Origin: Thermoplasmata archaeon | Lineage (GTDB): Archaea > Thermoplasmatota > SW-10-69-26 > JACQPN01 > JAJPHT01 | Length of the DNA: 64,000 bases | Assembly: GCA_034667685.1 (NCBI GenBank) | Contig: JAXDQU010000106.1 | Location: 11,610 to 75,609 of the forward strand | Direction of reading: 5' to 3' | Shown here: piece after piece, positions 5,333-45,131 of the stretch | Layout of the letters: every line of letters begins with the position of its first letter | Position numbering within the stretch: position 1 is the stretch's first letter | The notes under the pieces: model-generated | What the model was told of the DNA's origin: nothing | Seen by the model: only the letters and a program-made list of their open reading frames with translations | Databases searched by the model: none | Translations under genes and position numbers: made by a program

Positions 5333-5641
5333 CTAGTCGCAGGGCCGCGGGTCGATCACCGGGATGTTGCAGGGCTGAATGGTCTGCCCGTCGGGGCCGC
5401 AGAGCACCTCGTACTCGTACACGCCCCGCACGGGCGGATCGACGACGAGGAAGTAGCAGACCGCGCCGCGCGAGGTGGTGTAGTTCCCCACGCACGCCTC
5501 GGGCTGTTGGTCGTTGGGGTTCGTGAGGGGCGCGCAGGCGGTGATGGCGGAGGCCGGGGGCGCGAGGAGCAGCGGGGCCAGGCAGCAGACGAGGAGGAGG
5601 AGGAGGAGGAGGAGGAGGAGGAGGAGAGTGGGGCGGATCAC
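5333..5641 (-). CDS. small secreted Cys-rich protein with poly-Leu signal peptide
   Basis: GTG start, V-I-R-P-T-(L)12-VCCLAPLLLAPPASA signal peptide, then a ~70-aa mature region with 6 Cys. The poly-Leu is encoded by a (GAG)12 repeat read on the minus strand. Confidence 0.45.
   Translation of the reverse strand: MIRPTLLLLLLLLLLLLVCCLAPLLLAPPASAITACAPLTNPNDQQPEACVGNYTTSRGAVCYFLVVDPPVRGVYEYEVLCGPDGQTIQPCNIPVIDPRPCD
5591..5626. repeat. (GAG)12 trinucleotide microsatellite
   Basis: Twelve perfect GAG units. On the minus strand this is CTC x12, coding the Leu12 core of the signal peptide of the 5333..5641 gene. Confidence 0.9.
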
Positions 5642-7504: not shown

Positions 7505-7828
7505 ATGCGCTTCTCCACCCTCTTCCTCGCCCTCGCCCTCCTCCCCGCCCTCGCGTTCCCCGTCGCCAGCGCGAACCTCACGCAGGTCTGCACCGGCGGC
7601 CTGATCGAGTCGGTCCAGGCGTGCGCCTCGACGAACGGCTGCGCGACCGTCTGGCTCGGACCCGCCGGGCACACCGTCTGCGCGGGCTCGCTCGTGGGCG
7701 CGGTCCACGTCTGCACGACGAACCTCGTCGAGTCGGTGGGCGTGTGCGTGGACACGGCGCCCGTCTGCGTCACGCTCTACGCGGGCCCCGCCGCGACGCC
7801 CGTGTGCCTGGGCAAGCTCCTCGCCTGA
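7505..7828 (+). CDS. small secreted Cys-rich protein with internal duplication
   Basis: Signal peptide MRFSTLFLALALLPALAFPVASA, then two ~35-aa repeats (VCTGGLIESVQACAS...TVCAGS / VCTTNLVESVGVCVD...PVCLGK). Confidence 0.5.
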   Translation: MRFSTLFLALALLPALAFPVASANLTQVCTGGLIESVQACASTNGCATVWLGPAGHTVCAGSLVGAVHVCTTNLVESVGVCVDTAPVCVTLYAGPAATPVCLGKLLA

Positions 7829-8053: not shown

Positions 8054-8123
8054 CCGCATGCGGAGCCGCGCAGCGCCCGCGCGGCAGCGAACCTTTATCG
8101 GCGGCACGCCTGTCCCCGCCTTC

Positions 8124-8846
8124 ATGCCTGAGGACTATGCAGCCTTCCTGAAGCGCGCACGCAGCAAGGTGCCCGAGAAGGTGGGCACGGGCGAGCGCTT
8201 CGTGATGCCGCAGATGGACGTCCTCCAGGAGGGCAAGCTCACCATCGTGCGCAACATGGCCGAGGTGCTCGACCGGCTCAACCGTCCCAGCGACCACCTC
8301 GTCCCGATCCTCCTGCGCGAGGTCGGCACGGCGGGCAGCTACGAGGACGGCCGCCTCACGCTCCAGGCCAAGGTCAGCCCGGACAGCCTCCAGACGCGCC
8401 TCGAGAAGTACGTCGAGACGTACGTCATCTGCGGCGAGTGCGGCCGCCCCGACACGCACCTCATGAAGGAGGAGCGCACGACCATCCTGAAGTGCGACGC
8501 GTGCGGCGCGCACCGGCCGATCAAGGGCGCGGCCAAGAAGGCCGCCGTCAAGCCCGAGGAGGCCGTCGTCGAGGGCAAGACCTACGAGGTCATGATCGAG
8601 GACAACGGCAAGCGCGGCGACGGCATCGCGCGGCGCGACCGCTACACCATCTTCGTGAAGGGCGCGCAGAAGGGCAACGTCTACCACGTCAAGATCGAGA
8701 AGGTCACGGGCACGCTCGCGTTCGGCGAGATCGTCAGCGCCGCGGCCGCGACGCCCAACACGGCCGGCCCCAAGACCGCCGCGCAGGCCGCCGCGGGCAA
8801 CAAGCCTGCTTCGGGCGCGAAGCCCGGCGGCCCCGCCAAGAAGTGA
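8124..8846 (+). CDS. translation initiation factor aIF2 beta subunit with C-terminal TRAM domain
   Basis: eIF2-beta/eIF5 core with the C4 zinc ribbon (CGECGRPDTHL...CDACGA), then TYEVMIEDNGKRGDGIARRDRYTIFVKGAQKGNVYHVKIEKVTGTLAFGEIV (TRAM-like beta-barrel) and an Ala/Lys/Pro-rich tail. Weak TTTATC ~28 nt upstream suggests a leaderless transcript. Confidence 0.8.
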   Translation: MPEDYAAFLKRARSKVPEKVGTGERFVMPQMDVLQEGKLTIVRNMAEVLDRLNRPSDHLVPILLREVGTAGSYEDGRLTLQAKVSPDSLQTRLEKYVETYVICGECGRPDTHLMKEERTTILKCDACGAHRPIKGAAKKAAVKPEEAVVEGKTYEVMIEDNGKRGDGIARRDRYTIFVKGAQKGNVYHVKIEKVTGTLAFGEIVSAAAATPNTAGPKTAAQAAAGNKPASGAKPGGPAKK

Positions 8847-9716: not shown

Positions 9717-10661
9717 ATGAGCAACGTCGTCATCTGGGCACCCGAGGCGCGCCAGGCGCACGAGCTCGTCGCGAAGGCCAAGGAGCTGGGCCTCACGCCC
9801 GTCGTGCTCCACGTGGGCGCGGGCGACCCGCAGGCGTACGTCCAGCACGGCGCCGCGAAGGTCCTCGTGGCCGACTCGCCCAAGCTCGCCGACTTCCAGA
9901 GCGGCCCGATGACGGACGCGCTCGCCGACGCCGTCAAGCAGGTCGGCGCCAAGGCCGTGTTCCTCAGCGGCGGCCGCCGCGGCAAGGAGATCGCGCCCCG
10001 CCTGGGCGTCAAGCTCAAGGCCGGCGTCGTCACGCTCGCGCAGAAGGCGCGCAGCGAGGGCGGCAAGCTCGTCTTCGAGCGCATGTTCCTGGGCGGCAAG
10101 ACGCTCGCCACCGAGATCCCGCAGAGCGAGGTCGCGATCGCCACCTTCCCCGCGCGCCTCTTCGAGCCGCTCCCGGCCGACGCGGGCGCCAAGGGCGAGG
10201 TCGCCAAGCTCGCCGGCGAGATCCGTGATAGCAAAGTCAAGGTCACGAAGAAGATGCCGCGCAAGGAGAGCGGCGTCAACCTGGAGGCGGCGCCCGTCGT
10301 CGTGGGCGCGGGCCGCGGCTTCAAGTCGAAGGACGACCTCAAGCTCGCCTTCGACCTCGCGGCCACGATGGGCGGCCAGGTGGGCTGCTCGCGCCCCCTG
10401 GCGACGGACCTCGGCTGGCTCACCGACGAATACTGGATCGGCCTCTCCGGCAAGGAGGTCAAGCCCAAGGTCTACGTCGCCGCGGGCATCAGCGGCCAGA
10501 TCCAGCACACGACGGGCATCCGCAACAGCAAGCTCATCGTCGCGATCAACACGAACAAGGACGCGCCGATCTTCAAGATGGCCGACTATGGGATCGTCGG
10601 CGACTTGTACAAGGTGTTGCCCGCCCTCCAGGCTGCCGTGAAGAAGCAGAAGGGCCGGTAG
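9717..10661 (+). CDS. etfA: electron transfer flavoprotein alpha subunit
   Basis: FAD-binding C-terminal domain (PVVVGAGRGF...YVAAGISGQIQHTTGIRNSKLIVAINTNKDAPIF). Start is adjacent to the etfB stop. Confidence 0.85.
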   Translation: MSNVVIWAPEARQAHELVAKAKELGLTPVVLHVGAGDPQAYVQHGAAKVLVADSPKLADFQSGPMTDALADAVKQVGAKAVFLSGGRRGKEIAPRLGVKLKAGVVTLAQKARSEGGKLVFERMFLGGKTLATEIPQSEVAIATFPARLFEPLPADAGAKGEVAKLAGEIRDSKVKVTKKMPRKESGVNLEAAPVVVGAGRGFKSKDDLKLAFDLAATMGGQVGCSRPLATDLGWLTDEYWIGLSGKEVKPKVYVAAGISGQIQHTTGIRNSKLIVAINTNKDAPIFKMADYGIVGDLYKVLPALQAAVKKQKGR

Positions 10662-10667
10662 GTCGTC

Positions 10668-10922
10668 CTACAGGATCGTGCACGGCGTCAGCACGGGCCC
10701 CGAGCAGTCGAGGACGTTCCAGTAGAGGCACTGCACGTCCGGGCTGTTGGGGCACCACGTCTCGTCCGAGTTGACGAACGTGTTGCCGGTGCCGCAGTGC
10801 ACGTGCTCCCACCAGTCCCAGACGACGACCTGGCACGAGACGGGCGCGGTGGCCGAGGCGGCGGGGACGAGCAGGAAGGGGATCGCGACGAGGCTCGCGG
10901 CGAGGAGGAGGTTGCGGAGCAT
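10668..10922 (-). CDS. small secreted Cys-rich protein, tandem paralog 3 of 3
   Basis: Signal peptide MLRNLLLAASLVAIPFLLVPAASA. ~60-aa mature region with 6 conserved Cys ending ...LDCSGPVLTPCTIL. Confidence 0.5.
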   Translation of the reverse strand: MLRNLLLAASLVAIPFLLVPAASATAPVSCQVVVWDWWEHVHCGTGNTFVNSDETWCPNSPDVQCLYWNVLDCSGPVLTPCTIL

Positions 10923-10932
10923 CGCGTCCACC

Positions 10933-11175
10933 TCAGAGCACCGTGCACGGGAAGAGCAGCGTGCCGTCGCAGACGAGGATGTCGAAGTAGCCGCAGCGCG
11001 AGCCGGGCGGGCACCAGTTCTCGGAGGAGCTGACCGCGGTGGTCGTGGTGCCGCAGTGGACGCTCTCGTCCCAGTCCTGCACCGTGACCTGGCAGGTGGG
11101 CGAGCCGATCGAGGCGCTCGCGGCGGGAACGGAGAGAAGGACGACGAGAAGGGAAAGCAGCGTGGCGCGGAGCAT
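10933..11175 (-). CDS. small secreted Cys-rich protein, tandem paralog 2 of 3
   Basis: Signal peptide MLRATLLSLLVVLLSVPAASA. Same Cys framework (CQVTVQDW...HCG...WCP...C...LVCDGTLLFPCTVL). Confidence 0.5.
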   Translation of the reverse strand: MLRATLLSLLVVLLSVPAASASIGSPTCQVTVQDWDESVHCGTTTTAVSSSENWCPPGSRCGYFDILVCDGTLLFPCTVL

Positions 11176-11257
11176 GGCGGGGGTCACCGCGCCCGTCAGC
11201 GCCCGCGCAAGGGATAGCCGTGACGGAGCGCAACGCGCGCGTTGCGCGCCGCGGCGC

Positions 11258-11509
11258 TCAGAGCAGCGTGCACGGGAAGAGCAGGCTGCCGGTGCAGGCC
11301 AGGATCGTGCCGTCGGCGCAGAGCGTCGGGCTGGGGCACCAGGTCACGCTCCCGGCCGGGCCGACGTTGCTGACCTTGCAGCCGTACGTGGCGTCCCAGA
11401 AGTTGAGGACGAACGAGCAGCTCGCGGGCACCGCGGCGGCGGCCGAGCCGGCGAGCGCGACGGGCAGGAGGACGAGGAGCGCCGAGACGAGGATCGTGGG
11501 GGTTCGCAT
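11258..11509 (-). CDS. small secreted Cys-rich protein, tandem paralog 1 of 3
   Basis: Signal peptide MRTPTILVSALLVLLPVALAGSAAA. CSFVLNFW...YGC...WCP...C...LACTGSLLFPCTLL. Confidence 0.5.
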   Translation of the reverse strand: MRTPTILVSALLVLLPVALAGSAAAAVPASCSFVLNFWDATYGCKVSNVGPAGSVTWCPSPTLCADGTILACTGSLLFPCTLL

Positions 11510-11579
11510 GGGGGAATTCCCGCGCCCGGAACGGGCCACCGAGGCTTGGCTCCTTGGGTGCAGCCGCGCGGGTGCTGCC

Positions 11580-13154
11580 CTACTTCACGTGCACCACGAA
11601 GCGGCACTTGGCGTCGCCGCGCGACTCGCACGAGACCTCCGCGCCGCGCGCCGGGGCGTCGCCGTGCAGGCGCGAGGCGGCGCCCGTCGCGTAGCCCAGG
11701 GCGAGATAGCACGTCGTGGCGCGCGAGCCGGGCGACTTCTCGAAGAGGTCCGAGCCGGTGAACTCGTAGCGCCCGGCGTCCGCGGAGGTCGTCTCGATGC
11801 GGCCCAGGCCCATCTCGGCGTAGGCGCGCGAGAAGGCGTCGAGGTCCTGGGCCTCCGCGGTGCGCGCGAGCGACTCGCCCAGCCGCAGCAGCGCGCTCGC
11901 GTCGGCGTGCGTCTCGTCCATCAGCGCGCGGACGATGCGGCGCACCAGCGGGCGCGCCACGCGCGAGGAGACCAGCCGCTCGCGCGCCTCGTCGAGCTCG
12001 TGGAGCGCGCGGGCGTTGGCGAGCGTGGCGGAGGCCTCGGCCGCGACGATGGCGAGGAGGTTGCGGTCCACCGGCGCGAAGCGCGCGTTGCTGCGCCGGT
12101 TCGGGTGGATCAGCAGCGCGCCCATCTTCGCGCCGCCGGGGCCTTCGAGCGTCGCGGCCATCGGCGGCTCGCTGCTCGCACCCCCTTCGAAGTCGAGGCT
12201 CCACCGGCGCTCGCGGCCGTCCTGCTCGACGACGAGCGTCGTGCGCCCCGCCTGGAAGACGTCGCCGCAGGTCTGGAGGATGCGCGTCGCGGCGCGCTCG
12301 AAGTCCTTCTCGCCCACCAGGGCGCGCGTCATCCCGCTGAGGCGATCGTGGACGAGCGCCTCCCTCTCGGTGCGCGCCACGAGGCCGACGTGCTCGCGCG
12401 CGAGGTAGGCGAAGGGCACGAGCGCCGCGACGGCCACGGGATGGACGTTCCAGAGCGCCCACGTCGCGAGCCCGCCCGCGATGCCCAGCGCGACGTGCAG
12501 CAGCGTGGGGATCCAGAAGCGCTCGCCGAAGACGACGTGGACCGCGACGCGCTCGCGCAGCGAGAAGACGCTGGAGACGAGGACGTGCGTGACGAAGGTG
12601 TAGGCGACGAGGGCGCCGCAGATGGCGACGAGGGGCGGCGCGACGAGCTGGAGGAAGAGGTACGTCGAGACGCAGGCGCCGCCCGCGAGCGCGAGGACGG
12701 CGACGTTGGCCGCGGCGCGCAGGAGCGGCCGGCGCGTCTTGACCTGGTAGGCCGTCATCGGCACGATGGCGAAGAGGACGACGAACGGCAGCGGCAGCGC
12801 GAGGAGGGCGAGGAAGACGAGCACCTCGTCGGGACCGAGGGCGATGCGCTGCCCGCGCCAGTCGAAGAGGATGAGCCGGTTGAGGATCAGCCACGAGGCG
12901 GCGACGAGCCCGGCCAGGAGAAGCCAGCGCGGCGCGTCCATGCTCCCCGTGGCGGTGGGGAGCGCCCAGAGCGCGGTGGCGAGCACGACGGCGCCACCCG
13001 CCGCGAGGGAAGCCAGGTACGGGTCCACGAGGCGCGTCGGGTCGAAGGGCTGCGCGGGAGCGTACGCGTTCGCCATCGGCCGACCCGTCACCCTTCCCCG
13101 TGGGGCGCCTTCTTCAGGGTGCCGCATGTCCGGATTCTCACGAACGATGCTCAT
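11580..13154 (-). CDS. membrane sensor protein: N-terminal polytopic TM domain, central GAF-like region, C-terminal V4R domain
   Basis: ~7 hydrophobic helices in the first 250 aa. The C-terminus (TTCYLALGYATGAASRLHG...EVSCESRGDAKCRFVV) matches the V4R (4-vinyl reductase-like) small-molecule-binding domain. Start could be an internal Met (MANAYAP). Confidence 0.55.
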   Translation of the reverse strand: MSIVRENPDMRHPEEGAPRGRVTGRPMANAYAPAQPFDPTRLVDPYLASLAAGGAVVLATALWALPTATGSMDAPRWLLLAGLVAASWLILNRLILFDWRGQRIALGPDEVLVFLALLALPLPFVVLFAIVPMTAYQVKTRRPLLRAAANVAVLALAGGACVSTYLFLQLVAPPLVAICGALVAYTFVTHVLVSSVFSLRERVAVHVVFGERFWIPTLLHVALGIAGGLATWALWNVHPVAVAALVPFAYLAREHVGLVARTEREALVHDRLSGMTRALVGEKDFERAATRILQTCGDVFQAGRTTLVVEQDGRERRWSLDFEGGASSEPPMAATLEGPGGAKMGALLIHPNRRSNARFAPVDRNLLAIVAAEASATLANARALHELDEARERLVSSRVARPLVRRIVRALMDETHADASALLRLGESLARTAEAQDLDAFSRAYAEMGLGRIETTSADAGRYEFTGSDLFEKSPGSRATTCYLALGYATGAASRLHGDAPARGAEVSCESRGDAKCRFVVHVK

Positions 13155-13207: not shown

Positions 13208-13465
13208 ATGCGCTCCCTCCTTCTCGTCGCGCTCCTGGCGACCCCGGTCCTCGCCGCGCTCGCCACGCCCACCGCCTCCGCGACCTGCGCCACGCAGGAC
13301 GTCACGGTCAACGGCCAGGTCGTCGCCAGCCTGCTCTACGACGCGCCCAGCAAGGGCGGCCCGATCTGCATCACGCGCCTCACCGTGTACGAGTGCTCCG
13401 CCACGACCACGACGGACCTCGCGCGCGTGCTGACGTGCTCGTCCACGCCCTTCGTCGTGCTCTGA
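13208..13465 (+). CDS. small secreted Cys-rich protein
   Basis: Signal peptide MRSLLLVALLATPVLAALATPTASA. 60-aa mature region with 6 Cys ending TCSSTPFVVL. Confidence 0.45.
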   Translation: MRSLLLVALLATPVLAALATPTASATCATQDVTVNGQVVASLLYDAPSKGGPICITRLTVYECSATTTTDLARVLTCSSTPFVVL

Positions 13466-13502: not shown

Positions 13503-14288
13503 GTGCGGCGCGCGGCGCTCCTCCTTGTCCTGCTCGTGCTGGCCGGCTGCGCCGGACCCACGGGGGCGTGCGACGTGGGGTGCCACCGCGTCTGGCAGGC
13601 GCAGGACCTCGCCGCGGGCTCCTACGACGCGCTCTCGGCCGGCGCGCGCCTCGCGCCCGCATCAGGGATCGCCTTGCCGAACGCCACGCTCGCGGCGCTC
13701 TACGGCGAAAGCTATCGCGTCGCGAGCCTCGTCTACGCGCCCAACGCGAGCGAGGACGCCCGCGCGACGCTGCTGCTCAACGGCACCGCGCCGCGCCTCG
13801 TCGTGGCCGTGCCCCCGACGTGGAACGCGACGCGCATCGAGGCGCTGGCCCGCGGCGCGTTGGCGAACCTGACCCGCGCGGACCTCGCGCCGATCCTCGC
13901 CGCGCTCGAAGCCAACCGCACGGAAGGCGCGTGCTGCCCCGCGCGGACGACGCTCTCCGCCGACCTCGCGGCGCCGCTGAACGTCTCGGGCCTCTGGGCG
14001 CGCCTCAAGCCCGTCGTGCGCGGCGACGAGGACCACCACCTCGACGGCGGCGAGCCCGTGACGAAGGGCGCATGGTCGTTCCTCCTCTCCTTCCCGACCG
14101 CGAGCGTCCAGGCCGGCTCGCCCGACGGGACGCTCCACGCGGAGGCCAACGCGCGCGGCCGCTACAGCGTGCTCCTGGAGCTGCCGCGCGACGAGAACGC
14201 GACGCAGGCGCGCGCCGCGCTCCACGCGCTGCTCGTGGCCGCCGGCGCGCGCGACGACGTGGACTGGGCGCTCGTGCCCGCCGCGTGA
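13503..14288 (+). CDS. putative lipoprotein / secreted glycoprotein
   Basis: GTG start. Lipobox-like LLVLAGCAG. Eight N-x-S/T sequons (NAT, NAS, NGT, NAT, NLT, NRT, NVS, NAT). Confidence 0.5.
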   Translation: MRRAALLLVLLVLAGCAGPTGACDVGCHRVWQAQDLAAGSYDALSAGARLAPASGIALPNATLAALYGESYRVASLVYAPNASEDARATLLLNGTAPRLVVAVPPTWNATRIEALARGALANLTRADLAPILAALEANRTEGACCPARTTLSADLAAPLNVSGLWARLKPVVRGDEDHHLDGGEPVTKGAWSFLLSFPTASVQAGSPDGTLHAEANARGRYSVLLELPRDENATQARAALHALLVAAGARDDVDWALVPAA

Positions 14289-31035: not shown

Positions 31036-31347
31036 CGGCGCGCGTCGAGAAGCCGCACCGAAGGGTTATGCGCCCCCGGTGGATTGCGCCTTGCGAGGCT
31101 GTGTCATGGGCATCCGGAGCGAGACGGCGGCGTTCGCCGCGGGCGGCCTGGCGCTGATCGGCGCGTGCGTGCTCCCCTTCACCGCGGCGTGCCTCGCCGC
31201 CTGCGGCATCGCGCTCTCCGTGGGCGAGGTCCTCGTCGCGCGGCGCGCCCTCGTGGGCGCCTGAGCCGGACCGCGGCAACCGTTCGGGTGCAGCGCGCGA
31301 ACTTGCATCTTCGCAGGTTTGGGTCGCGGCAGCGAGGCACAACCCCC

Positions 31348-32364
31348 ATGCGCCGCTTCCTTGCCCTCAGCTTGCCTGCCATCCTGCTTCTCTCGGGCGT
31401 CACGCTCGTCGCGTCGAACGCCGCCGCGTCGGACCAGCTCTGGGACTGCCAGAGCCTCCTCAACGATGACGGCACCTGCGCGGGCTCCGTCTGCGCGGGC
31501 AACGGCGGCTGGGGCGAGTGCGCGCCGCAGACGACCGAGAAGGTCTGCACGCAGGGCCACGCGCCCTGCCAGGGGCTCGACGTCCTGTGCGTCTACGGCC
31601 CCAAGGTCAACGAGTGCCTGATGGGCTGCGCGTGCTACATCGGGGGCGCCGCCACCACGCCCCAGCCGTGCGTCGACTGCCCCACGTACCCCATCGTGTG
31701 CGTCTCCGGCGTCACGGCCGGCACGTGCGGCGACGGCGACGACGTGTGCGTCTCGATCGGCACGCTGCCGCGCCACTGCGAGGACCTGCCCGGCACGACG
31801 TGCAACGTGCCGTGCCAGCAGCACGTGGAGTGCGTCGTGTTCGTGGGCTCCGGCGCCGCGGCCGCGACGTGCTTCGTCGATGGCCGCGAGGTCGGCCCCG
31901 TGCAGACGTGCGACACGTGCGCCGTCCTCTTCGGCGTCACCTGCCAGGTCGGCACGGACGCGAACGCCTGCGACGGCGTGAGCCCGCCGCCCTGCGCGTG
32001 CATCCCGGCGAGCCAGCCCCAGCCGATCCCCGTCGCCCTCTGCGTGCGCAGCGTCAACGCGGCGCACTGCACCTGGGCCGGCCAGGACCACCCCGCGTGC
32101 GTCACGATCAGCCAGCAGGTCCCGCAGTGCCTGCCCGACCCCGGCGTGGTCTTCACCTGTGGCGACCTCGCGCCCGCCTGCTCCGACCCGACGAACCCGT
32201 GCGCGTGGGGCTGGATCGAGTGCGGGCCCAGCGGCCTGCCCCCGGTGCGCGCCGCGTCCCCGGTGGAGTGCATGGAGTACTACTGGTCGCAGGACTTCGG
32301 CCCCGTGAGCGTCACGATGCGCGACTCGTGTCACGTCTCGGTCGAGCAGCACGTGCTGGCCTAG
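31348..32364 (+). CDS. large secreted Cys-rich protein (~50 Cys)
   Basis: Signal peptide MRRFLALSLPAILLLSGVTLVASNAAAS, then 310 aa with many Cys pairs (CAGSVCAGNGGWGEC, CTQGHAPCQGLDVLC, CLMGCAC...). Confidence 0.5.
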   Translation: MRRFLALSLPAILLLSGVTLVASNAAASDQLWDCQSLLNDDGTCAGSVCAGNGGWGECAPQTTEKVCTQGHAPCQGLDVLCVYGPKVNECLMGCACYIGGAATTPQPCVDCPTYPIVCVSGVTAGTCGDGDDVCVSIGTLPRHCEDLPGTTCNVPCQQHVECVVFVGSGAAAATCFVDGREVGPVQTCDTCAVLFGVTCQVGTDANACDGVSPPPCACIPASQPQPIPVALCVRSVNAAHCTWAGQDHPACVTISQQVPQCLPDPGVVFTCGDLAPACSDPTNPCAWGWIECGPSGLPPVRAASPVECMEYYWSQDFGPVSVTMRDSCHVSVEQHVLA

Positions 32365-37127: not shown

Positions 37128-37397
37128 GGGGTCACGCGGCCGCGCGTCCTTGGAGCTTGTGGAGCATTGCTTTCTTTCATCGAGAGGAACAGACAACCCC
37201 CCACGTGCTTTTGGAAACAATTCGTTATGTTAAGCTTCCTCGGTGAGCAGGTATCTAGCCTGCTCCCACGAGGCTGCATGGCACGATATACTTCCGCAAG
37301 TCACAACGATGGTCTAGTCTGTTACTTGCATGATGATATCCTTCGTGCCCCGGGCGACAGCTCGCCCGAGTGTGGAGGAATCCAATTGGCCAAAGAC

Positions 37398-39173
37398 ATG
37401 CAATCTCCGATCCGAACGCGGCTTCGCGGCAACGGCGTCCGGACGCTGCTGCTCGCGCTCGTCCTCATCGCGCCGCTCTCTCTCGCGGTCGCCGCGACGC
37501 AGCCGCAGGACGTCACCGTGCCCGCTGGGACGACCCTCACCGTGGCGGCGCCCCTCTCCGTGGGCACGCTCACCGTGCTGGGCACGTTGAAGATGGACGC
37601 GCCCGGCGACTTGCGCATCGTCGCGCAGAGCATCCACGTCGGGCCCCACGGCGTAATCGCTGGCTTCGCCGGCGCGCCCGGGCGAGACGCGCACGGCCTG
37701 GGCGCGACGGGAGCGCCAGGCCTCGACGGCGGCTCCGTGTACCTGACCGCACAGTCGGTCGAGGTGGACGAGGGCGGCTTCATCCTGGCGGGCGCGGGCG
37801 GCCACGGCGGCAACGCCGAAGGGCTCGGCCTCGTGACCGCAGGCCCGGGCGGCCAGGGCGGCTCCGTCGTCGTCCAGGCCGTCACGAGCCGGCTCGACGG
37901 CGCGCTCGTGCCCGGGGACGGCGGCGACGGCGGCAACGCGGCCGAGGTCGTCCATGACCTCGTGCTCCAGGGCGCGACGGTGGCAGGTAACGGTGGCGAC
38001 GCGGGCTGGGCTCTCCTCAATGGGCGCCCGGTCGCGCCGAGCGCCGCGCCGCCCCCGATCGTCGCGGAAGTCATCGACCTCGTCTTCTACTGCGGAGTGC
38101 CGCTCCCCCTGACTCCCGTAGGGGCTCCCGGGGCGCCGGGCGTCGTTACGCGCGGCGGGCGTGGCGGCGACGCGTGCATGAGATCCTTCAGCGCCGATGG
38201 CCTGCCGTGCGTCGGTGATGCGGGCGATGGCGAAACCCCCCACCCCACCCACGCGTCGGCCACGGCGGGCAACGGCGGCGCCGGCGGCCCGACCCAGCCC
38301 GGCGGCGCGGGCGGCACGGCCGTCGCTTGGGCCCGCTCGGGCAACGGGTCCGACGGATGCCCGGGCGCGACGACGGGCGGCGCGGCCGGCAATGGCGCGG
38401 GCGCCACGGCCGACGCGCAAGGCGGCCGGGGCGGCCAGGGCGGCCACTCCGTCGGCCTCACCGCCGGCGGCAGCGGCGGTGGCGGCGGCAGCGCGTTCTC
38501 GGAAGCATACGGCGGCATCGCCGGCAACGGCGGCAGCATCACGACGGCGATCGGCACCGGCGGCGCCGCCGGCATCGGCGGGGGCGCCTCGGCCACCGCG
38601 GTGGCCGGCGATGGCGGCAGCGGCGGCGACAACAACTCGGGCATCGGCGGTGGCGGCGGTTCGGCGAACGCGACGGCGATCGCGGGTCACGGCGGCAACG
38701 GCGGCAACGCCGGGCCCGGCCTGACTGGCGGCACCGCGGGCCTCGGCGGCTCCGGCGGCAATCCCTCGTCCTCGGCCCGTGCGGGCAGCGGCGGTGCAGG
38801 CTCGATCGGCGGTGGCGGCGGCGACGCGAAGGCGACCACCGGCGGCCCGGGTCAGAGCCCGTACGGCGGCGACGCGGGCAACATCGGCACGGCTCAGCCC
38901 GGCGGCAGTGGCGGGAGTTGGAGCGCGGTCGCCATCGCAGGCGATGGTGGCGACGGCTGCTCGAGCCCGACCCACACGCCCGTCCCGGGCAACGGCGGCC
39001 AGGGCGTGGCGTCCGGCCCCACGGGCGGTGCGCCCGGAGGCAACGGCACGCCCCACGGCCAGGCCGGCTCGAGCCTCCAGACATCCTCCGCCAACGGGAG
39101 CTCCGGCGGCATCGACGGACCCACGTGCGCGACGGGCATGCACGCCCCGCCGCCTTTCCAGGACGTCTTCTAG
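37398..39173 (+). CDS. secreted Gly-rich GGxGG-repeat protein 1
   Basis: ATG 14 nt after GGAGG. Signal peptide MQSPIRTRLRGNGVRTLLLALVLIAPLSLAVAA. ~100-aa N-terminal domain, a Cys-containing block, then ~350 aa of GGxGG-type repeats (GGNGGAGG, GGRGGQGG, GGDGGSGG). The antisense frame encodes only Pro/Arg-rich junk. Confidence 0.55.
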   Translation: MQSPIRTRLRGNGVRTLLLALVLIAPLSLAVAATQPQDVTVPAGTTLTVAAPLSVGTLTVLGTLKMDAPGDLRIVAQSIHVGPHGVIAGFAGAPGRDAHGLGATGAPGLDGGSVYLTAQSVEVDEGGFILAGAGGHGGNAEGLGLVTAGPGGQGGSVVVQAVTSRLDGALVPGDGGDGGNAAEVVHDLVLQGATVAGNGGDAGWALLNGRPVAPSAAPPPIVAEVIDLVFYCGVPLPLTPVGAPGAPGVVTRGGRGGDACMRSFSADGLPCVGDAGDGETPHPTHASATAGNGGAGGPTQPGGAGGTAVAWARSGNGSDGCPGATTGGAAGNGAGATADAQGGRGGQGGHSVGLTAGGSGGGGGSAFSEAYGGIAGNGGSITTAIGTGGAAGIGGGASATAVAGDGGSGGDNNSGIGGGGGSANATAIAGHGGNGGNAGPGLTGGTAGLGGSGGNPSSSARAGSGGAGSIGGGGGDAKATTGGPGQSPYGGDAGNIGTAQPGGSGGSWSAVAIAGDGGDGCSSPTHTPVPGNGGQGVASGPTGGAPGGNGTPHGQAGSSLQTSSANGSSGGIDGPTCATGMHAPPPFQDVF

Positions 39174-39259
39174 GAGGAGACGGCAAGAGCGTGACATCCG
39201 GAGCCGTGCGTTCCGCGCCGCACGGCTCCTCTTTTCCCTTTTCCCCAGGAGAACGACGC

Positions 39260-40909
39260 ATGGACCCCGGACGCAAGCCCCGTATCCCGCGTGCATTTGC
39301 CATCGCGTGCGCCGCGCTCGTCGCCCTGACGAGCCTCGGCGCCGCCTCGCTCGCGCAATCCGCGGGGCCCGACATTGTCGTCGCGCGGGGCGTGACGCTC
39401 ACGCTCGATGCGCCCGCGCACCTGCGCCATCTCCTCGTCCAGGGCGAGCTGGTCCTCGACCTGCCGCCCCATGCGGTCCTCGCTGCCGATGACGTCCGCG
39501 TCGCCTCGTCCGGCGCGATCCGCGGCGCCAACGGCGCGGACGCGCCCGCCGCGCGCGGCCTCGACGCGTCTGGCCTGCCAGGCGCGCCCGGCGCGAGCGT
39601 CGCGCTGCGCGTCGGCTCGCTGGTGGTCGAGCGCGGCGGCGCGATCGTTGCCGGCTCGGGCGGGCGCGGCGGCGACGCCCTCGGATCCGGCCTCCTCCGC
39701 GGCGGCCCCGGAGGCGCCGGCGGCTCGCTCCTCCTCGACGCGGCGCAGAGCAGTGTCGAGGGGCGCCTCGCGGCGGGCTCGGGTGGCGAAGGCGGCGACG
39801 CGATCGCGCTGCGCGCGCCGGCGACCGCGCAGGGCGGACGCGGCGGCGACACGGGCGTCGCGCTGCTCGACGGCGCGCCGATCCCCATGACGAATGATAT
39901 CATGCCGTCCCCGCGCTTCGCGGCCGGGTGCAGCTCGCCGCCTCTCGGCGCGCCCGGCGCGGCCGTCGTCGGCGGCGCGGGCGGATACGCCTGCATGCGC
40001 GTCGAGAGCGAGGCCGGCGCGCCCGGCCCCGCGTGCGGCCCCGGCACGGAAGGCGGGCCGGCCCTCGCCCTCGCCATCGGCGGCGACGGCGGCGACGGCC
40101 TCGCGCCTGGCGCCCCCGGAGGCGCCGGCGGCAGCGCGTTCGCGCAGGCCGACGCCGGGCAAGGCGGCGCGGGCGCGGACTGCATCACGGGCAGCGGCGG
40201 CGCCGGAGGCGTTGGCGGCCGGGCCCTCGCCCAGGCGCGCGCGGGCCAGGGCGGCCAGGGAGGCGTGGGCGCGGCGGGCGGCGCCGGCGGACTCGCCTTC
40301 GCGCAGGCGCGCGGCGGACCCGGTGGCGCAGGCGGGTCGGGCGCGCTCGCGGGAGGCGCTGGCGGCGTCGGCGGCGCGGCGGACGCCTCGGCGCTTGGCG
40401 GCGCGGGCGGCGCGGGCGGAGCGCTCGGCGCGCCCGCAGGCGGAGGCGGCCCCGGCCGCGCGGACGCTTCGGGCGGCCACGGCGGCGCGGGAGGCCGCGG
40501 CCAGACGGCGGGCGGGAATGGCGGCGAAGGAGGCGCAACCTCCGCCAACGCCACCGGAGGCGGCGGCGGGGCCGGGGATTCCGGCGGAGGCGGCGGACCG
40601 GGAATCACCAGCATCGACGCGCGCGGCGGCGACGGCGGCGCGCCCGATGGCCTGGGCGGAGCGGGAGGCGCGTGGCGCTCCATCGCCACCGGAGGCGCGG
40701 GCGGCGACGGGTGCGACGGCGGCCAGGGCGCGAACGGCGGCTTCGCGGTGGCCGGCACGCCGGGCCCAGGCGTCTCGGGCGGATCGAACACGGAAGGTGG
40801 CACGGCTCCCCCGGGCGCCGGCAGCGCCACCGCGACGCAAGGCCGGGCCGGAGCCGCGGGCGGGCCGGGCTGCATGTTGTTAGCGATCGACTGGAGGACA
40901 CCAAGATGA
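39260..40909 (+). CDS. secreted Gly-rich GGxGG-repeat protein 2
   Basis: Signal peptide MDPGRKPRIPRAFAIACAALVALTSLGAASLA. Paralogous N-terminal domain and Cys block. Long GGAGG/GGQGG repeat region. Confidence 0.55.
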   Translation: MDPGRKPRIPRAFAIACAALVALTSLGAASLAQSAGPDIVVARGVTLTLDAPAHLRHLLVQGELVLDLPPHAVLAADDVRVASSGAIRGANGADAPAARGLDASGLPGAPGASVALRVGSLVVERGGAIVAGSGGRGGDALGSGLLRGGPGGAGGSLLLDAAQSSVEGRLAAGSGGEGGDAIALRAPATAQGGRGGDTGVALLDGAPIPMTNDIMPSPRFAAGCSSPPLGAPGAAVVGGAGGYACMRVESEAGAPGPACGPGTEGGPALALAIGGDGGDGLAPGAPGGAGGSAFAQADAGQGGAGADCITGSGGAGGVGGRALAQARAGQGGQGGVGAAGGAGGLAFAQARGGPGGAGGSGALAGGAGGVGGAADASALGGAGGAGGALGAPAGGGGPGRADASGGHGGAGGRGQTAGGNGGEGGATSANATGGGGGAGDSGGGGGPGITSIDARGGDGGAPDGLGGAGGAWRSIATGGAGGDGCDGGQGANGGFAVAGTPGPGVSGGSNTEGGTAPPGAGSATATQGRAGAAGGPGCMLLAIDWRTPR

Positions 40910-42723
40910 TATCAGGACACGGAGCCCGAAGGACAAACCGATCGACCCGGCTCGCTGCGACCTGCGCGGTCGCGTTGGGCCTCGTTCTCCTGACGCCGAT
41001 CGTGGGCAGCTTCGGGACCAATGCGCCCGGGATGGACGCGAGCGTCCCTGAGGGCGCGGTGACGACGCTGCAAGGCGCGCGCTCGTTGCACGACATCGAC
41101 GTGCTGGGCACGCTCGTGCTCGACCTCGCCCCCGGCCAGACCCTCGACGCGGTCCATGTGCACGTGGGCGGCCACGGCGCGATCGTGGGTGCCGCAGGCG
41201 CGGCGGGCGCAGACGCGCAGGGACGCGACGCGCAGGGCGCCGCAGGCGCGGAGGGCGGCCGCGTGGTGATCCAGGCGGACTCCATCACGCTCGACGAAGG
41301 AAGCCTCGTGCAGGGCGGCCGTGGCGGTGAGGGCGGCGCGGCGACTGGCTACGGCGTCGTGGTCGGCGGCAACGGAGGCACGGGCGGCTTCGTGCGCGTG
41401 ACCGCGCGGGAGCGCAGCGTGCACGGCCTCATCCTGCCCGGCTCGGGCGGCGACGGCGGCGCGGCCGTCGAGATCGTCAACGCGTCGCAGGTCGTCGGCA
41501 TGAGCGTCAAGGCCGTCGGCGGGCGCGGGGGCGACACGGGCCGCGCGTGGCTCAATGGCGTCCTGGTCCCGGCCAAGCTGCCCGACCTGCCGAAGCCGCC
41601 GCTTGTCTCGATCAATCCGCCGCTCCAGTGCCCCGGCGGCGCGGCGCTCATCATCGGCTCGCCCGGGTTGCCCGAGGGCGGCCACGGCGGGACCGCGTGC
41701 ATGCTCAGCATCGGCGCCCCGGGCGCCAACGGGTCGGGCTGCGCTGGCTCGACGGGCGACGCGGGCTCGACGGGAGACGCGGCAGCGGCTGCGGCGGTCG
41801 GCGGACGCGGCGGCGACGCCGCGCTTCCGGGCGTGCCCGGCGGCGGGGGCGGCGACGCGTGGGCGATCGCGCGCGGCGGCAACGGCGGCGACGGAAACAG
41901 CTGCCTGACCGGCGGCGCGGGTGGCAACGGTGGCGGCGCACAAGCGGAGGCCGTCGGAGGCGAGGGCGGCATGGGCGGGACGCTCGGCGCCCTGGGCGGC
42001 TTGGGCGGCTGCGGCTACGCAGAGGCCAAGGGAGGGCTCGGCGGCACGGGAGGCTCGGGCTCGACCACCGGAGGCGCTGGCGGCTCGGGCGGCAGCGCGT
42101 CCGCCACGACGGACGGCGGCGACGGCGGGCCCGGCGGCCTGCCCAACGGCCTGGCCGGCGACGGCGGCTGCACGTTCACCTTCGGGGCGGGCGGCAACGG
42201 AGGCCGCGGTGGGGCCTGCACCAGCATGTCCCTCTGCACGGCCGGCACGGGCGGCAGCGCGGGCCAGCCCACCGACGCCAAGTCGCGCGGCGGACGCGGT
42301 GGCGACGGCGGGCGCGGAGGGAATGGCGGCGCGGCGCACAGCGAGGTTGACCCGCGCGGCGGGGACGGCGGCGTGCCCAATGGCCTGGGCGGGCTGGGCG
42401 GCAGCGTGAGCGTCCTGGCGGCGGGCGGCGACGGCGGGAACAGCCTCACCTGGCCCGAAGGGGGACTGGGCGGCGAGGCGAGCACGCTGATCCCCCAGGG
42501 GAGCCTCGATGGCGGCCTGGGCGGCGACGGCACCCCCGCGCTGGGCGGGGTGGTTCTCGCCGACCAATCCAAGCGGGGCGAGGATGGGGTCGGGACCGGT
42601 GGGCCTGGGCCCTCCGTTGGCGGCGCACCCACGCTCTCATCCTGGGGCGCGGCGCTCATGGCCGCCGCGCTGCTTGGCGTGGGCGTCGCCTTCACGCGGC
42701 CCCGAAGGCCCGATCAGCCCTGA
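40906..42723 (+). CDS. secreted Gly-rich GGxGG-repeat protein 3 with C-terminal TM anchor
   Basis: ATG overlaps the stop of protein 2 (ATGA). Signal peptide, paralogous N-domain, GGxGG repeats, then C-terminal WGAALMAAALLGVGVAFTRPRRP (hydrophobic helix plus basic cluster, sorting-signal-like). Confidence 0.55.
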   Translation: MISGHGARRTNRSTRLAATCAVALGLVLLTPIVGSFGTNAPGMDASVPEGAVTTLQGARSLHDIDVLGTLVLDLAPGQTLDAVHVHVGGHGAIVGAAGAAGADAQGRDAQGAAGAEGGRVVIQADSITLDEGSLVQGGRGGEGGAATGYGVVVGGNGGTGGFVRVTARERSVHGLILPGSGGDGGAAVEIVNASQVVGMSVKAVGGRGGDTGRAWLNGVLVPAKLPDLPKPPLVSINPPLQCPGGAALIIGSPGLPEGGHGGTACMLSIGAPGANGSGCAGSTGDAGSTGDAAAAAAVGGRGGDAALPGVPGGGGGDAWAIARGGNGGDGNSCLTGGAGGNGGGAQAEAVGGEGGMGGTLGALGGLGGCGYAEAKGGLGGTGGSGSTTGGAGGSGGSASATTDGGDGGPGGLPNGLAGDGGCTFTFGAGGNGGRGGACTSMSLCTAGTGGSAGQPTDAKSRGGRGGDGGRGGNGGAAHSEVDPRGGDGGVPNGLGGLGGSVSVLAAGGDGGNSLTWPEGGLGGEASTLIPQGSLDGGLGGDGTPALGGVVLADQSKRGEDGVGTGGPGPSVGGAPTLSSWGAALMAAALLGVGVAFTRPRRPDQP

Positions 42724-43173: not shown

Positions 43174-44682
43174 TTATAAGGCAGACGGGTCCGCGAGGGG
43201 TGGGAGCGCCTCCAGCGCGCCGCGCAGCGCCGGCCCTTCCGCCAGCGTGCCCACCGTGAGCACGTTGCCCATCTTGTGGACGGTCGGGTCGGTGACGCAT
43301 TTCTCGTTGCAGACGTCGACGAAGACGGCGTAGGGGCGGCCCTGGGGGTCGATGGCGGCGTCGATGAAGTCGTCCATCCCGCCGCAGCGCGTCTTGCCGC
43401 ACACGCCGCGCGCGAGGGGGTTGGCCGGGTCGTTGGCGGTGACGGTGGTGGCGACGGGGTGCGCGTCCTTCGCGTCGGTCATGACGGTGAGGTAGCCGTT
43501 CCACGAGGCGTTGGCCCACTCGGGCGGGTCCTGCGCGGGGCTGGCGATGTCGGTGACCGTGCCCTCGGGGCCGGTCTGCTTGCCCGCGTACCCGCCGGGG
43601 ATCGTCGTGGCGACGTAGGCGAACACGAGGCGGCCGTCGGCGCCCGCGGCGAGGGCGGGGAACGCGGCGGCGGTGACCTCGGGGGGCGAGACGACGAGGG
43701 CGGGCGCCCACGTGACACCGTGGTCCTTGCTCCAGGCGTAGGTGGGCAGGCCCTTGTCGCTGATCCATCCCGCGTACACGGTGCCGTTGTCGTCGACGGC
43801 GAGGTTCACGTCGTGCACGACGCCGCTGTTGATCACGGCGGAGCCCTTCGCGATGACGTGCGAGGTCCACGTGAGGCCGTCGTCCTCGGTGACGCCGATC
43901 GTGGGGTTGCGGTTGCAGCCGCCGTGCGCGAGGAAGACGCGCCCGTCCTTGTCCGTGACCGGGTGGCCCAGCGAGTCGCCCGGGCAGTCGGTGGGGTCGG
44001 TCGTCTGCGGGAAGACCGTCACGACGGGGCCGAACGTGTAGCCGCCGTTGAGCGAGGTGGCGCACTCGGTCGTGACGCCGGTGTTCGTGCACGAGTAGAC
44101 GACATTGGGATAGAGCGGGCTCACGGGGAGCATGCGCGGCTTGGCGGCGACCATGCTCTGGTGGTCCGCGATGGGGACACCCGCGCCCACGCCGCAGCCC
44201 ACGGGGCTCGTGGTCCACGTGGCGCCCGCGTCGTCCGTCCACGAGAGGATCGCGCACTCGGCGTCGTTCTCGTTCTTGTAGACGCGCCCCGTCGTCGGGT
44301 CGAGGTACATGTACGGGTCGAGCGTCTGCGGCGGCGCGTGCTGGCCCGTGGGCAGCGTGGGCCCCACGTCCTTCCACGTCAGGCCGTGGTCCTCGGAGCG
44401 CATGATGGTGGGCTCGCCAGCCTGGAACGCCTCGGCGAAGATGCGCCCCTTGCTATCAATGCCCAGCGTGGGCTCGCCGCCCGAGGCGCCGGTGGAGAGC
44501 TGCAGGCCGCGGGCGGGCAGGGGCGCGGCGGCCGGGATCGCGCCGCCGCCGAGGACGTGGACCTCGCCCGCGAGCGAGGCGGGGAGCGTCGAGGCGCTCT
44601 GGACGGGCTGGGGGACGGCGCCGGGCGCGGCGCAGCCGGCGAGCAGGACGGCCAAGGCGAGGAAGACGAGCGCGAGACGCAT
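43174..44682 (-). CDS. BNR/Asp-box repeat (sialidase-like beta-propeller) lipoprotein
   Basis: Lipobox-like LAVLLAGCAAPG. Four Asp-boxes (SEDHGLTW, TDDAGATW, TEDDGLTW, SKDHGVTW). Start at MRLALVFLAL. Confidence 0.65.
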   Translation of the reverse strand: MRLALVFLALAVLLAGCAAPGAVPQPVQSASTLPASLAGEVHVLGGGAIPAAAPLPARGLQLSTGASGGEPTLGIDSKGRIFAEAFQAGEPTIMRSEDHGLTWKDVGPTLPTGQHAPPQTLDPYMYLDPTTGRVYKNENDAECAILSWTDDAGATWTTSPVGCGVGAGVPIADHQSMVAAKPRMLPVSPLYPNVVYSCTNTGVTTECATSLNGGYTFGPVVTVFPQTTDPTDCPGDSLGHPVTDKDGRVFLAHGGCNRNPTIGVTEDDGLTWTSHVIAKGSAVINSGVVHDVNLAVDDNGTVYAGWISDKGLPTYAWSKDHGVTWAPALVVSPPEVTAAAFPALAAGADGRLVFAYVATTIPGGYAGKQTGPEGTVTDIASPAQDPPEWANASWNGYLTVMTDAKDAHPVATTVTANDPANPLARGVCGKTRCGGMDDFIDAAIDPQGRPYAVFVDVCNEKCVTDPTVHKMGNVLTVGTLAEGPALRGALEALPPLADPSAL

Positions 44683-44765
44683 GCGCGCGCACGGCCGGCG
44701 GGCACACAAAGGCGTTGTGGTGCTGTCGCAACAATCCTCCACAACGATGATCGGCGCGCGCCCCG

Positions 44766-45131
44766 ATGTCCGAGGCGGTGTCGGTTGTGCGGACCCCTCT
44801 CTTCCTCGGCATGCTCCTCGTGACGTCCCTCGTCGCCCTCGCGCCCTCGGGCAACGCCGCCGCGAACGGCTGCGTCGACGCGGGCAGCGGCATCACCGCG
44901 TGCGGCGCGGCCGTCGCGGTCGGGTGCGGCGTCAGCACGGGTGTGGGCGCGGCGACCGGCATCGTCGCGTGGACGCTCGTGAGCAGCACCGAATCGGGCT
45001 CGAAGTCGTTCAGCCTGCGCGCGCCCGCCTTCGCCGGCGCCGCCGACGCGCCGTGCACCACGGCCTCGTGCACGACGGGCTTCCTCTACGCCAACGGCGT
45101 GCTTGTCTCCGAGAGCCAGACCGTGTGCTGA
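44766..45131 (+). CDS. small secreted Cys-containing protein
   Basis: Hydrophobic leader (LFLGMLLVTSLVALAPSGNAAA) then ~90 aa with 7 Cys, ending SQTVC. Gly/Ala/Thr-rich. Confidence 0.4.
   Translation: MSEAVSVVRTPLFLGMLLVTSLVALAPSGNAAANGCVDAGSGITACGAAVAVGCGVSTGVGAATGIVAWTLVSSTESGSKSFSLRAPAFAGAADAPCTTASCTTGFLYANGVLVSESQTVC

Follow-up and report, generated by a model that had tools for sequence, protein, structure and literature searches.

Three tandem small cysteine-rich secreted proteins beside a 7TM-GAF-V4R membrane protein in a Thermoplasmata archaeon

Gene content of the locus

In the window (the whole 64-kb stretch of DNA analysed here), three consecutive small genes, P1 to P3, lie directly downstream of a gene for a polytopic membrane protein, with other small secreted proteins encoded nearby (Table 1). 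Such genes are concentrated around this locus, with 6 of the window's 7 small secreted Cys-rich open reading frames (ORFs) falling within 5.3–13.5 kb. The surrounding genes include those for ETF, aIF2-beta, an M29 peptidase, a lipoprotein-like protein and an amino-acid-type ABC transporter. None was found near the locus for a kinase or response regulator, nor for a protease or exporter that would process or release peptides.

Table 1. Features of the locus (positions in the window)
Feature	Position	Strand	Description
ETF alpha	9717..10661	+	Pfam match; convergent with P3
P3 (QOE90_3128)	10668..10922 (alternative start 10931)	-	84-aa precursor; six-Cys mature domain
P2 (QOE90_3129)	10933..11175 (alternative start 11187)	-	80-aa precursor; six-Cys mature domain
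Palindrome	11228..11247	.	Perfect, 20 nt; directly 3' of the P1 stop
P1	11258..11509	-	83-aa precursor, ATG start (GTG at 11539 as alternative); signal peptide and 57-aa six-Cys mature domain
Membrane protein (QOE90_3131)	11580..13076 (ORF open to 13154)	-	498 aa in the NCBI annotation; 7TM (S-component/CbiM-like), GAF and C-terminal V4R
P4 (QOE90_3132)	13208..13465	+	85-aa secreted four-Cys protein of another family; divergent from the membrane protein
Lipoprotein-like gene	13503..14288	+	261 aa; lipobox-like LAGC signal; no Pfam match

That P1–P3 are three consecutive same-strand genes of about 80 codons, each with a signal peptide and a six-Cys framework, had been proposed in a sequence-only reading of this DNA and is borne out by the ORFs, their codon composition and conservation across 18 family members. 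Third-codon GC content (GC3) is 0.95–1.00 (0.97 for P1) with the usual GC1/GC2 pattern, as in true genes of this 72% GC genome, and all three have database counterparts (P0033 for P2, P0031 for P3 and, one residue off, P0022 for P1). A Shine–Dalgarno-like element, GGTGAC, stands immediately 5' of P2, and 10 nt separate the P2 stop from the P3 start. Across their final 92 nt, P1 and P2 share 74% DNA identity, a remnant of tandem duplication. High-GC DNA does produce many long spurious ORFs, and the small genes might be chance ORFs of this kind; the probability of this is negligible, since it is already refuted by conservation (homologues that keep all six cysteines are found on at least 10 independent metagenome contigs), and the codon composition and a confident structure prediction from 17 sequences argue against it as well.

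The palindrome directly behind P1, GCGCAACGCGCGCGTTGCGC, may act as an RNA hairpin or binding site; it is not kept in the alignment with the related contig L012. A conserved block, CACGGCTATCC, is also present at the locus. No Rfam family or tRNA was detected in the entire window, and a bacterial-type promoter and terminator scan of the locus, ill-suited to archaea, found nothing. Because P1–P3 are co-oriented with the membrane-protein gene at a gap of about 70 nt, with no terminator detected in that scan, their co-transcription in this genome is possible.

A narrowly distributed family of secreted proteins

The N-termini of P1–P3 are hydrophobic signal peptides closing in an AxA-type site, and the mature parts (57–59 aa) each contain six cysteines. 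A class III (pilin) signal peptide was rejected, the signals being plain Sec type with AxA sites, and no lipobox, C-terminal transmembrane segment or archaeosortase signal was found in the three sequences. Interpreting the C-terminal C-T-[ILV]-L as a CaaX-like motif was also dropped: the last cysteine is one of an even number (six) of invariant cysteines in an exported protein and is therefore more likely disulfide-bonded, and other family members end in CQLL, in CSA or with an additional proline. The six cysteines and a W-C-P motif are invariant in 18 of the 18 family members collected, far past chance, a pattern from which three disulfides are probable in each of P1–P3. All three proteins are acidic (pI about 4.1), hydrophobic (positive GRAVY) and aromatic-rich, with only 0–2 lysines plus arginines.

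Searches returned 16 family proteins among 5.8 billion clusters; in 1.84 billion representatives only 9 matches reached E ≤ 0.001, and several of these 9 were spurious repeat proteins. Pfam and NCBIfam scans of P1–P4 were empty except for a 15-bit chance match of P2 to DUF2574, and a PDB sequence profile search with the family gave chance matches only (E ≥ 0.6). Profile searching of the mature peptides, which the sequence-only reading had proposed, thus had a divided outcome: a small homologous family exists, and it has no Pfam, NCBIfam or PDB relative. Nothing directly relevant was found in the literature on small Cys-rich secreted archaeal proteins. In comparable genome pairs, P-family orthologues are 52–76% identical versus 72–82% for the membrane protein; Nei–Gojobori dN/dS values, inflated and noisy with GC3 near 1, are 0.23–0.98 for the peptides versus 0.31–0.35 for the membrane protein. 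A lack of homologues or a dN/dS of about 1 had been named as grounds for discounting the small ORFs; homologues exist, and the dN/dS values are those just given. The P family is new, lineage-restricted, very narrowly distributed and fast-diverging.

Modelling of the P3 mature domain (pLDDT 85.7; alignment of 17 sequences) predicts an all-beta miniprotein of five strands, with no convincing fold match and none to known self-assembling proteins. The suggestion of a knottin-like fold did not hold: knottins and other inhibitor cystine-knot miniproteins share six cysteines, small size and beta structure with the P family, but the mature P domain is about twice as large and is predicted to have five strands, unlike the three-strand cystine knot of about 30–40 aa. 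P4 had been described as a fourth related small secreted Cys protein; it is small, secreted and Cys-bearing, but with four cysteines, no WCP motif and no detectable homology to P1–P3 (hhalign probability 0.2%) it is ruled out as a fourth P paralogue and falls into a separate family of five members. The 261-aa lipoprotein-like gene accompanies P4 and the membrane protein in relatives (homologues in L001 and L025).

The neighbouring membrane protein

An AlphaFold model of the membrane protein (pLDDT 83) contains seven membrane helices, then GAF, then V4R, in agreement with the earlier description of a co-oriented upstream polytopic 7TM-GAF-V4R protein but not with the statement that no soluble module other than V4R can be recognised in it: the fold identifies GAF as well, and the membrane domain too. 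V4R (PF02830) was the sole Pfam match, and at 30.6 bits it fell just short of the gathering score of 31; the same family is among the domains precomputed for this protein and most of its homologues, and the V4R fold and its conserved Cys/Glu cluster are present. The GAF fold lies between the membrane domain and V4R, and some homologues carry a PAS domain inserted between GAF and V4R. For the membrane domain, the model has the six- to seven-helix fold of ECF S-components (CbiM), at a sequence identity of only 5–14%, with no CbiM or S-component Pfam match at E ≤ 0.1. Its most conserved element is an FDWRGQR...PDE hairpin (W73, R74, G75, R77, D83 and E84), which an N-out/C-in topology, suggested by a positive-inside count, would place outside the cell; the loops are at most about 10 residues long.

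These features suggest that the protein most likely binds small molecules, with an S-component-like pocket in the membrane and GAF and V4R pockets in the cytoplasm, and, lacking any output domain that is an enzyme or binds DNA, it would signal through protein contacts. In PoxR, MopR and DmpR and in archaeal MJ1460 and MsvR, V4R either serves as the N-terminal sensor in a sigma-54 activator or forms the tail of a DNA-binding protein, whereas here it follows GAF and ends a membrane protein. The ECF S-components CbiM, RibU, ThiT and BioY are distant, at about 10% identity, and differ from the protein described here in that its membrane domain is fused to a cytoplasmic GAF-V4R portion. Nothing directly relevant was found in the literature on S-component-like sensor domains, and an S-component-like membrane domain joined to GAF and V4R without an output domain is an undescribed combination.

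The missing output domain would also suit a solitary S-component-type transporter gated by its GAF-V4R tail, with the small genes as unrelated neighbours, as would the conserved linkage with the M29 peptidase, amino-acid-type ABC transporter and ETF genes. We consider a transporter unlikely, given the low identity to S-components and the empty Pfam search for CbiM, the absence of adjacent EcfT/EcfA genes, and the PAS-insertion variants, which are typical of signalling proteins. CbiM and NikM start with a Met-His metal-binding N-terminus, and this motif is missing here.

Gene neighbourhoods in relatives

Conservation of synteny between the membrane protein and the peptides, a check put forward with the sequence-only reading, was not found beyond a single case: the order membrane protein–P1–P2–P3 is kept only in the window and on one 1.2-kb contig (L012), and elsewhere the content of the slot differs. 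In L001, L013 and L014 (one genome) and in L024, where the membrane protein is 78–83% identical, the gene downstream of it is a convergent P4-like gene, which is therefore not co-transcribable with it. In orthologues of 72% and 55% identity, the slot before ETF alpha is filled by a cation-efflux gene (L002) or by a gene for a 65-aa membrane protein (L003), and ETF alpha, as in the window, delimits the variable slot on the right and is conserved there. A 51% orthologue sits at the end of its contig, and its upstream side carries no small secreted Cys-rich gene. Nonetheless, a small secreted Cys-rich gene flanks the membrane protein in 4 of the 4 close relatives with a known flank (identity of at least 78%), which exceeds the expectation from random placement. 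A scan of GTDB genomes with the membrane protein found one locus only, in the same organism as L001, and a metagenome scan with its profile returned the L001 contig again (as L014) plus nine V4R paralogues, all of them distant and without a P-family gene beside them.

Conversely, the P family occurs with no such membrane protein nearby in L005–L011 and L025, an absence established locally only, on contigs that are mostly 1–4 kb long. A single-copy P-family gene in L005–L010 lies beside DUF1684, two other four-Cys secreted genes and a TPR gene, and the L005 cluster adjoins type-IV-pilus-like assembly genes (T2SSE/T2SSF). The P-family array of L011 is split by a gene for a 433-aa secreted protein, and in L025 a P2-like gene is divergent from four-Cys, P4-like and lipoprotein-like genes, with no membrane-protein gene between them.

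The sequence-only reading had seen in this arrangement a candidate signal/receptor or bacteriocin/immunity module. In a signal/receptor module, P1–P3 would be secreted pheromone-like or autoinducer proteins sensed at the outer 7TM face, for example at the invariant FDWRGQR...PDE hairpin, with the signal passed to GAF and V4R. Consistent with such a module are the shared strand and small intergenic gaps in the window, the identical gene order of L012, a small secreted Cys-rich neighbour at every close orthologue and the suggested outside position of the most conserved membrane-domain element. We nevertheless judge it improbable: the secreted genes next to the membrane protein come from unrelated families and differ in orientation, some being convergent; more distant orthologues lack small secreted Cys-rich genes in the available flank; P genes occur apart from the membrane protein; neither an output through a kinase or regulator nor a gene for export or processing was found; and the loops are short, in a membrane domain folded like those that bind small molecules. 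Because adjacency varies between relatives, P1–P3 and the membrane protein probably do not form a signal–receptor pair. The pheromone loci Agr and Com of Firmicutes likewise place small secreted products beside a co-oriented polytopic membrane protein with short external loops, but the protein here carries no histidine kinase (HisKA/HATPase) and is not paired with a response regulator. Genes of the AgrB or ComAB type, for processing or export, are missing from the locus, the secreted products are folded disulfide proteins of about 58 aa and not short modified peptides, and the genes do not stay linked across relatives. The accompanying remark that no such archaeal system is characterised stands, as none matches.

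Discussion

Our preferred reading, to which we give an even chance, is that P1–P3 are fast-diverging accessory secreted miniproteins in a hotspot of small secreted proteins, and not cognate ligands of their neighbour. They would be tandem duplicates within a lineage-restricted family of small exported proteins, their precursors exported by Sec and, as the sequences suggest, cleaved after an AxA-type site to release an acidic, hydrophobic, almost Lys/Arg-free product of 57–59 aa that is predicted to fold into a five-strand beta miniprotein, presumably with three disulfides. The slot they fill, bounded by a conserved membrane-protein gene on one side and ETF genes on the other, is variable, and the genes would belong to a shuffling set of unrelated small secreted Cys-rich genes (P, P4, four-Cys families and others) clustered in this clade of soil Thermoplasmata; this variable slot and shuffling gene population suggest accessory extracellular proteins that act alone.

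As to their role, archaeocin-like antagonism or another interaction with the envelopes of neighbouring cells may be the most likely, a tentative assignment by analogy with small, hydrophobic, acidic, disulfide-rich, amplified and fast-evolving proteins. Microhalocins and halocin C8 are likewise small, secreted, acidic, hydrophobic and Cys-rich archaeal proteins. The NCBIfam scan of P1–P4, presumably covering the TIGRFAM halocin_C8 model TIGR04449, gave no halocin_C8 match at E ≤ 0.1. P1–P3 have six cysteines and halocin C8 ten, and no halR- or halT-like neighbours are present at the P locus. Halocin C8 has 76 aa and is thought to act on the envelopes of others (in part from bioRxiv 10.64898/2026.07.27.741052); it is exported by Tat as a long precursor that is cut into an immunity protein and the halocin (bioRxiv 10.64898/2026.07.27.741052), whereas P1–P3 have Sec-type signals (no twin arginine; a simple hydrophobic stretch leading to an AxA site) on precursors of only 80–84 aa, with no HalI immunity half.

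Next most likely is a cell-surface or surface-active role. P1–P3, together with the remaining small Cys-rich hydrophobic proteins, would then resemble hydrophobins or be associated with the envelope, serving in a cell coat or in adhesion in soil, with the paralogues providing dosage or variation. The composition of P1–P3 would suit it (positive GRAVY, aromatic-rich, pI 4.1, almost no basic residues), as would the clustering of several unrelated families of the same type with one another and with a lipoprotein-like gene, and the position of the L005 cluster beside type-IV-pilus-like genes. We regard this role as rather unlikely, since P1–P3 have no anchor (lipobox, C-terminal transmembrane segment or archaeosortase signal), their fast divergence and copy-number change would be unusual in structural envelope components, and the predicted fold matches no known self-assembling protein.

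Comparative genomics weakens a pairing of ligand and receptor, and the P family is an orphan. It is very unlikely that the 7TM-GAF-V4R protein is a receptor for several fast-evolving families of folded, disulfide-rich secreted miniproteins whose genes surround it (P1–P3, P4 and the four-Cys proteins), recognised through an outward FDWRGQR hairpin; if it were, this would be the first protein-ligand system for cell–cell signalling or kin recognition described in archaea, and one with no histidine kinase. The membrane protein is a lead on how archaea couple ligand binding in the membrane to cytoplasmic signalling. If P1–P3 turn out to serve in antagonism or recognition, they would provide a new disulfide-rich miniprotein scaffold and would carry archaeocin-type biology from halophiles and Sulfolobales into a new setting, the abundant but uncultured soil Thermoplasmata.

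Coordinates of the features discussed (sensor and P1–P3 as in the ORF listing)
Locus	Coordinates	Strand	Feature
Window	11580..13154	-	Sensor ORF, 524 aa
Window	11258..11509	-	P1
Window	10933..11175	-	P2
Window	10668..10922	-	P3
Window	13208..13465	+	P4
Window	9717..10661	+	ETF alpha
Window	5333-5641	-	Small Cys ORF, 102 aa
Window	7505-7828	+	Small Cys ORF, 107 aa
Window	44778-45131	+	Small Cys ORF, 117 aa
Window	13503-14288	+	Lipobox-like family
L001	5153-5983		Lipobox-like family
L001	4236-5105		Lipobox-like family
L025	898-1026		Lipobox-like family
L005	7033-7843		Trio between DUF1684 and TPR genes
L011	537-1838	+	433-aa secreted protein
Window	43174-44742		522-aa weakly BNR-like secreted protein
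Window	37300-42723	+	Three GGxGG-repeat genes
Window	8058-8846	+	aIF2-beta
Window	31084-32364	+	Candidate 426-aa ORF

A new family of six-cysteine miniproteins

The three tandem small genes (P1, P2 and P3) and the domain architecture of the adjacent membrane protein (the sensor) are real. Window GC content is 70–79%, the GC3 of P1–P3 (0.95–1.00) matches that of bona fide window genes, and the locus proteins are identical to QOE90_3128 to QOE90_3132 of an NCBI 'Thermoplasmata archaeon' MAG. Each precursor starts with a hydrophobic signal peptide, whose last residues are AASA or AAAA, and continues into a mature part of 57–59 aa; the mature parts of P2 and P3 are 37–38% identical to that of P1 (16 invariant columns, six Cys included), and the last 92 nt of P1 and P2 still share 74% DNA identity. 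The sequence-only reading of three secreted proteins with a common six-Cys framework was borne out by the ORFs, GC3, signal peptides and homologues. In all 18 assembled sequences the Cys number exactly six and occupy shared alignment columns, with W-C-P invariant and one Trp near-invariant.

The profile searches proposed as a check did recover homologues. Built from the mature domains of P1–P3, a HMMER profile had nine matches at E ≤ 0.001 among 1.84 billion representative proteins: six were genuine proteins of 80–88 aa and the remainder repetitive artefacts. Profile searching across 5.8 billion clusters yielded 16 family members, all unnamed and lacking Pfam domains. Pfam, NCBIfam and PDB sequence searches found no relative, and the family is new. 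By record names, the related sequences come from soil-type metagenomes (forest, grassland, Centralia). Two subfamilies are distinguished by their C-termini, ...PCT[ILV]L(P) in the window type and ...YVDLTPPWYCQLL in the second.

In an AlphaFold2 model from a 17-sequence alignment (pLDDT 85.7; 62–86 over five models), the mature domain is predicted to form five beta strands and no helix, so the suggested knottin-like fold lacks support; solved structures included no convincing relative. The mature domains are anionic and hydrophobic (pI ~4.1, GRAVY 0.1–1.0, 4–9 aromatics, 0–2 Lys+Arg), unlike cationic antimicrobial peptides. The divergent gene P4, previously read as a fourth relative, does encode a small secreted Cys protein (85 aa), but a fourth P paralogue was rejected: it has four Cys, matches the P family with a profile–profile probability of 0.2%, and belongs with its homologues to a separate five-member family.

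Architecture of the sensor

NCBI annotation and homologue alignment favour a sensor start at 13076 (498 aa). The AlphaFold model (19 homologues, pLDDT 83) contains helices at residues 13–37, 48–66, 84–113, 118–142, 148–175, 179–211 and 213–253, a short beta hairpin (69–80) and alpha/beta domains at 259–369 and 376–497. In Foldseek, the last domain matched V4R domains that sense phenol in PoxR, MopR and DmpR (E 2.5e-4; the Pfam V4R score of 30.6 bits falls just short of the cut-off, 31) and the middle domain matched GAF domains. Beside the C-terminal V4R, GAF is a second soluble module recognisable by fold. In some homologues a PAS domain separates GAF from V4R, and the sensor lacks any kinase, cyclase, HD or DNA-binding domain. 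C456, E480, C483 and C491 are invariant among homologues, which we take to be the MopR/PoxR zinc-site pattern. A Cys cluster shared with PoxR/MopR has been reported (PMC5847659). Counted by the positive-inside rule, the model points to an N-out/C-in topology, which would place the invariant FDWRGQR...PDE hairpin outside.

Gene order among relatives

The window order (sensor, then P1-P2-P3 downstream, with P4 divergent upstream) was sought in relatives' contigs and recurred only in L012, where the V4R end (82% identity over 113 aa) is followed by P1, P2 and P3. The other sensor orthologues differed: L024 (83%) has a P4-like gene that converges on the sensor, 6 nt from the sensor's stop codon; L001 (= L013 = L014; 78–80%) has a convergent P4-like gene and an unrelated 4-Cys secreted gene, with P1–P3 absent within 10 kb on each side of the sensor; in L002 (72%) a cation-efflux gene and in L003 (55%) a 65-aa Cys-free membrane protein separates the sensor from ETF alpha; and in L004 (51%), whose contig stops at the sensor, the upstream side lacks a small Cys protein. 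A metagenome scan added nine more distant V4R paralogues, none beside a P-family gene. Since ETF alpha is also the next gene past P3 in the window, the space between sensor and ETF alpha is a variable slot.

P genes were likewise found in other settings. In L025 a P2-like gene stands divergent to three genes, one with 4 Cys, one P4-like and one homologous to the lipoprotein-like gene (261 aa) of the window, with no sensor between them; L011 carries P2, a 433-aa secreted protein, a further paralogue and P3. The second subfamily is single copy in another conserved context (L005–L010: DUF1684, P gene, two further unrelated 4-Cys secreted genes, TPR gene), with the sensor absent from a 15-kb stretch. 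No specific sensor–peptide operon is conserved.

Spacers measure ~70 nt (sensor–P1), ~80 nt (P1–P2) and 10 nt (P2–P3). Between P1 and P2, a CACGGCTATCC block ~45 nt ahead of the P2 start and a GGTGAC Shine–Dalgarno-like element are kept in the window and L012, and the window alone has a perfect 20-nt palindrome after the P1 stop; these features are compatible with an internal promoter, and the genes may still be co-transcribed. Nei–Gojobori dN/dS ratios, inflated and noisy at GC3 near 1, were 0.63 (P1) and 0.76 (P2) against L012, 0.23 (P2) and 0.98 (P3) against L011, 1.1 for P4 against L001 and 0.31–0.35 for the sensor. The small proteins nonetheless clearly diverge faster than the sensor, with every Cys retained.

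Clustered genes for small secreted Cys-rich proteins

Screening for a signal-like N-terminus, at least 4 Cys and GC3 > 0.85 identified seven ORFs in the window, six within 5.3–13.5 kb. Besides P1–P4, three small ORFs with signal peptides and 6–8 Cys had no Pfam match and were not matched by tblastn with P1–P3 and P4 queries; two lie within 6 kb of the P1–P3 array, so that the region forms a hotspot of genes of this type. The conserved feature is that small secreted Cys-rich genes cluster with one another and, in the closest clade, loosely about the sensor.

Other genes accompany these clusters. The conserved L005 trio of small secreted Cys-rich genes (also in L006, L007 and L008; partial in L009 and L010) comprises one six-Cys P-subfamily gene and two four-Cys families, mutually unrelated; in L005, T2SSE/T2SSF pilus-assembly-like genes and the gene for a 1309-aa ChW-repeat protein lie within a few kb of it. 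The 433-aa protein interrupting the L011 array has no Pfam match, and a weakly BNR-like secreted protein adjoins another small Cys-rich ORF in the window. A 260–290-aa family (lipobox-like signal, several Cys, no known domain), duplicated in L001, is linked to the sensor/P4 neighbourhood.

Elsewhere in the window, three large tandem genes encode signal-peptide proteins in which similar N-terminal domains precede long Gly-rich GGxGG-type repeats, the last with a C-terminal hydrophobic anchor and RPRR; local GC reaches 78–80%, and the GC3 gene filter caught none of them. The aIF2-beta (eIF-5_eIF-2B domain) carries at its C-terminus a TRAM domain along with a low-complexity tail, and a candidate ORF with 37 Cys passes the GC3 filter and overlaps a 61-aa ORF with 5 Cys. 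L013 (JAJPHT010000046.1, a GTDB species representative) is titled 'Proteobacteria bacterium Centralia_MAG_189'; it is co-linear with the JGI contig L001 in the compared stretch (equal tblastn identities at matching offsets), and its sensor and M29 peptidase are 78–85% identical to those of the window MAG. The record is probably mislabelled as to organism, or its bin is mixed.

Possible roles of the miniproteins

The pheromone- or bacteriocin-like sensor and peptide module of the sequence-only reading was not upheld, given the unconserved arrangement and a P family that also occurs apart from the sensor, and the small proteins and the sensor are less likely to form a dedicated signal/receptor or bacteriocin/immunity module. 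The evidence favours P1–P3 as secreted miniproteins that are accessory and fast-evolving, occupying a variable slot beside a protein built for small-molecule binding. From their chemistry and evolutionary behaviour, we infer that an archaeocin-like role would rank first and a surface role second.
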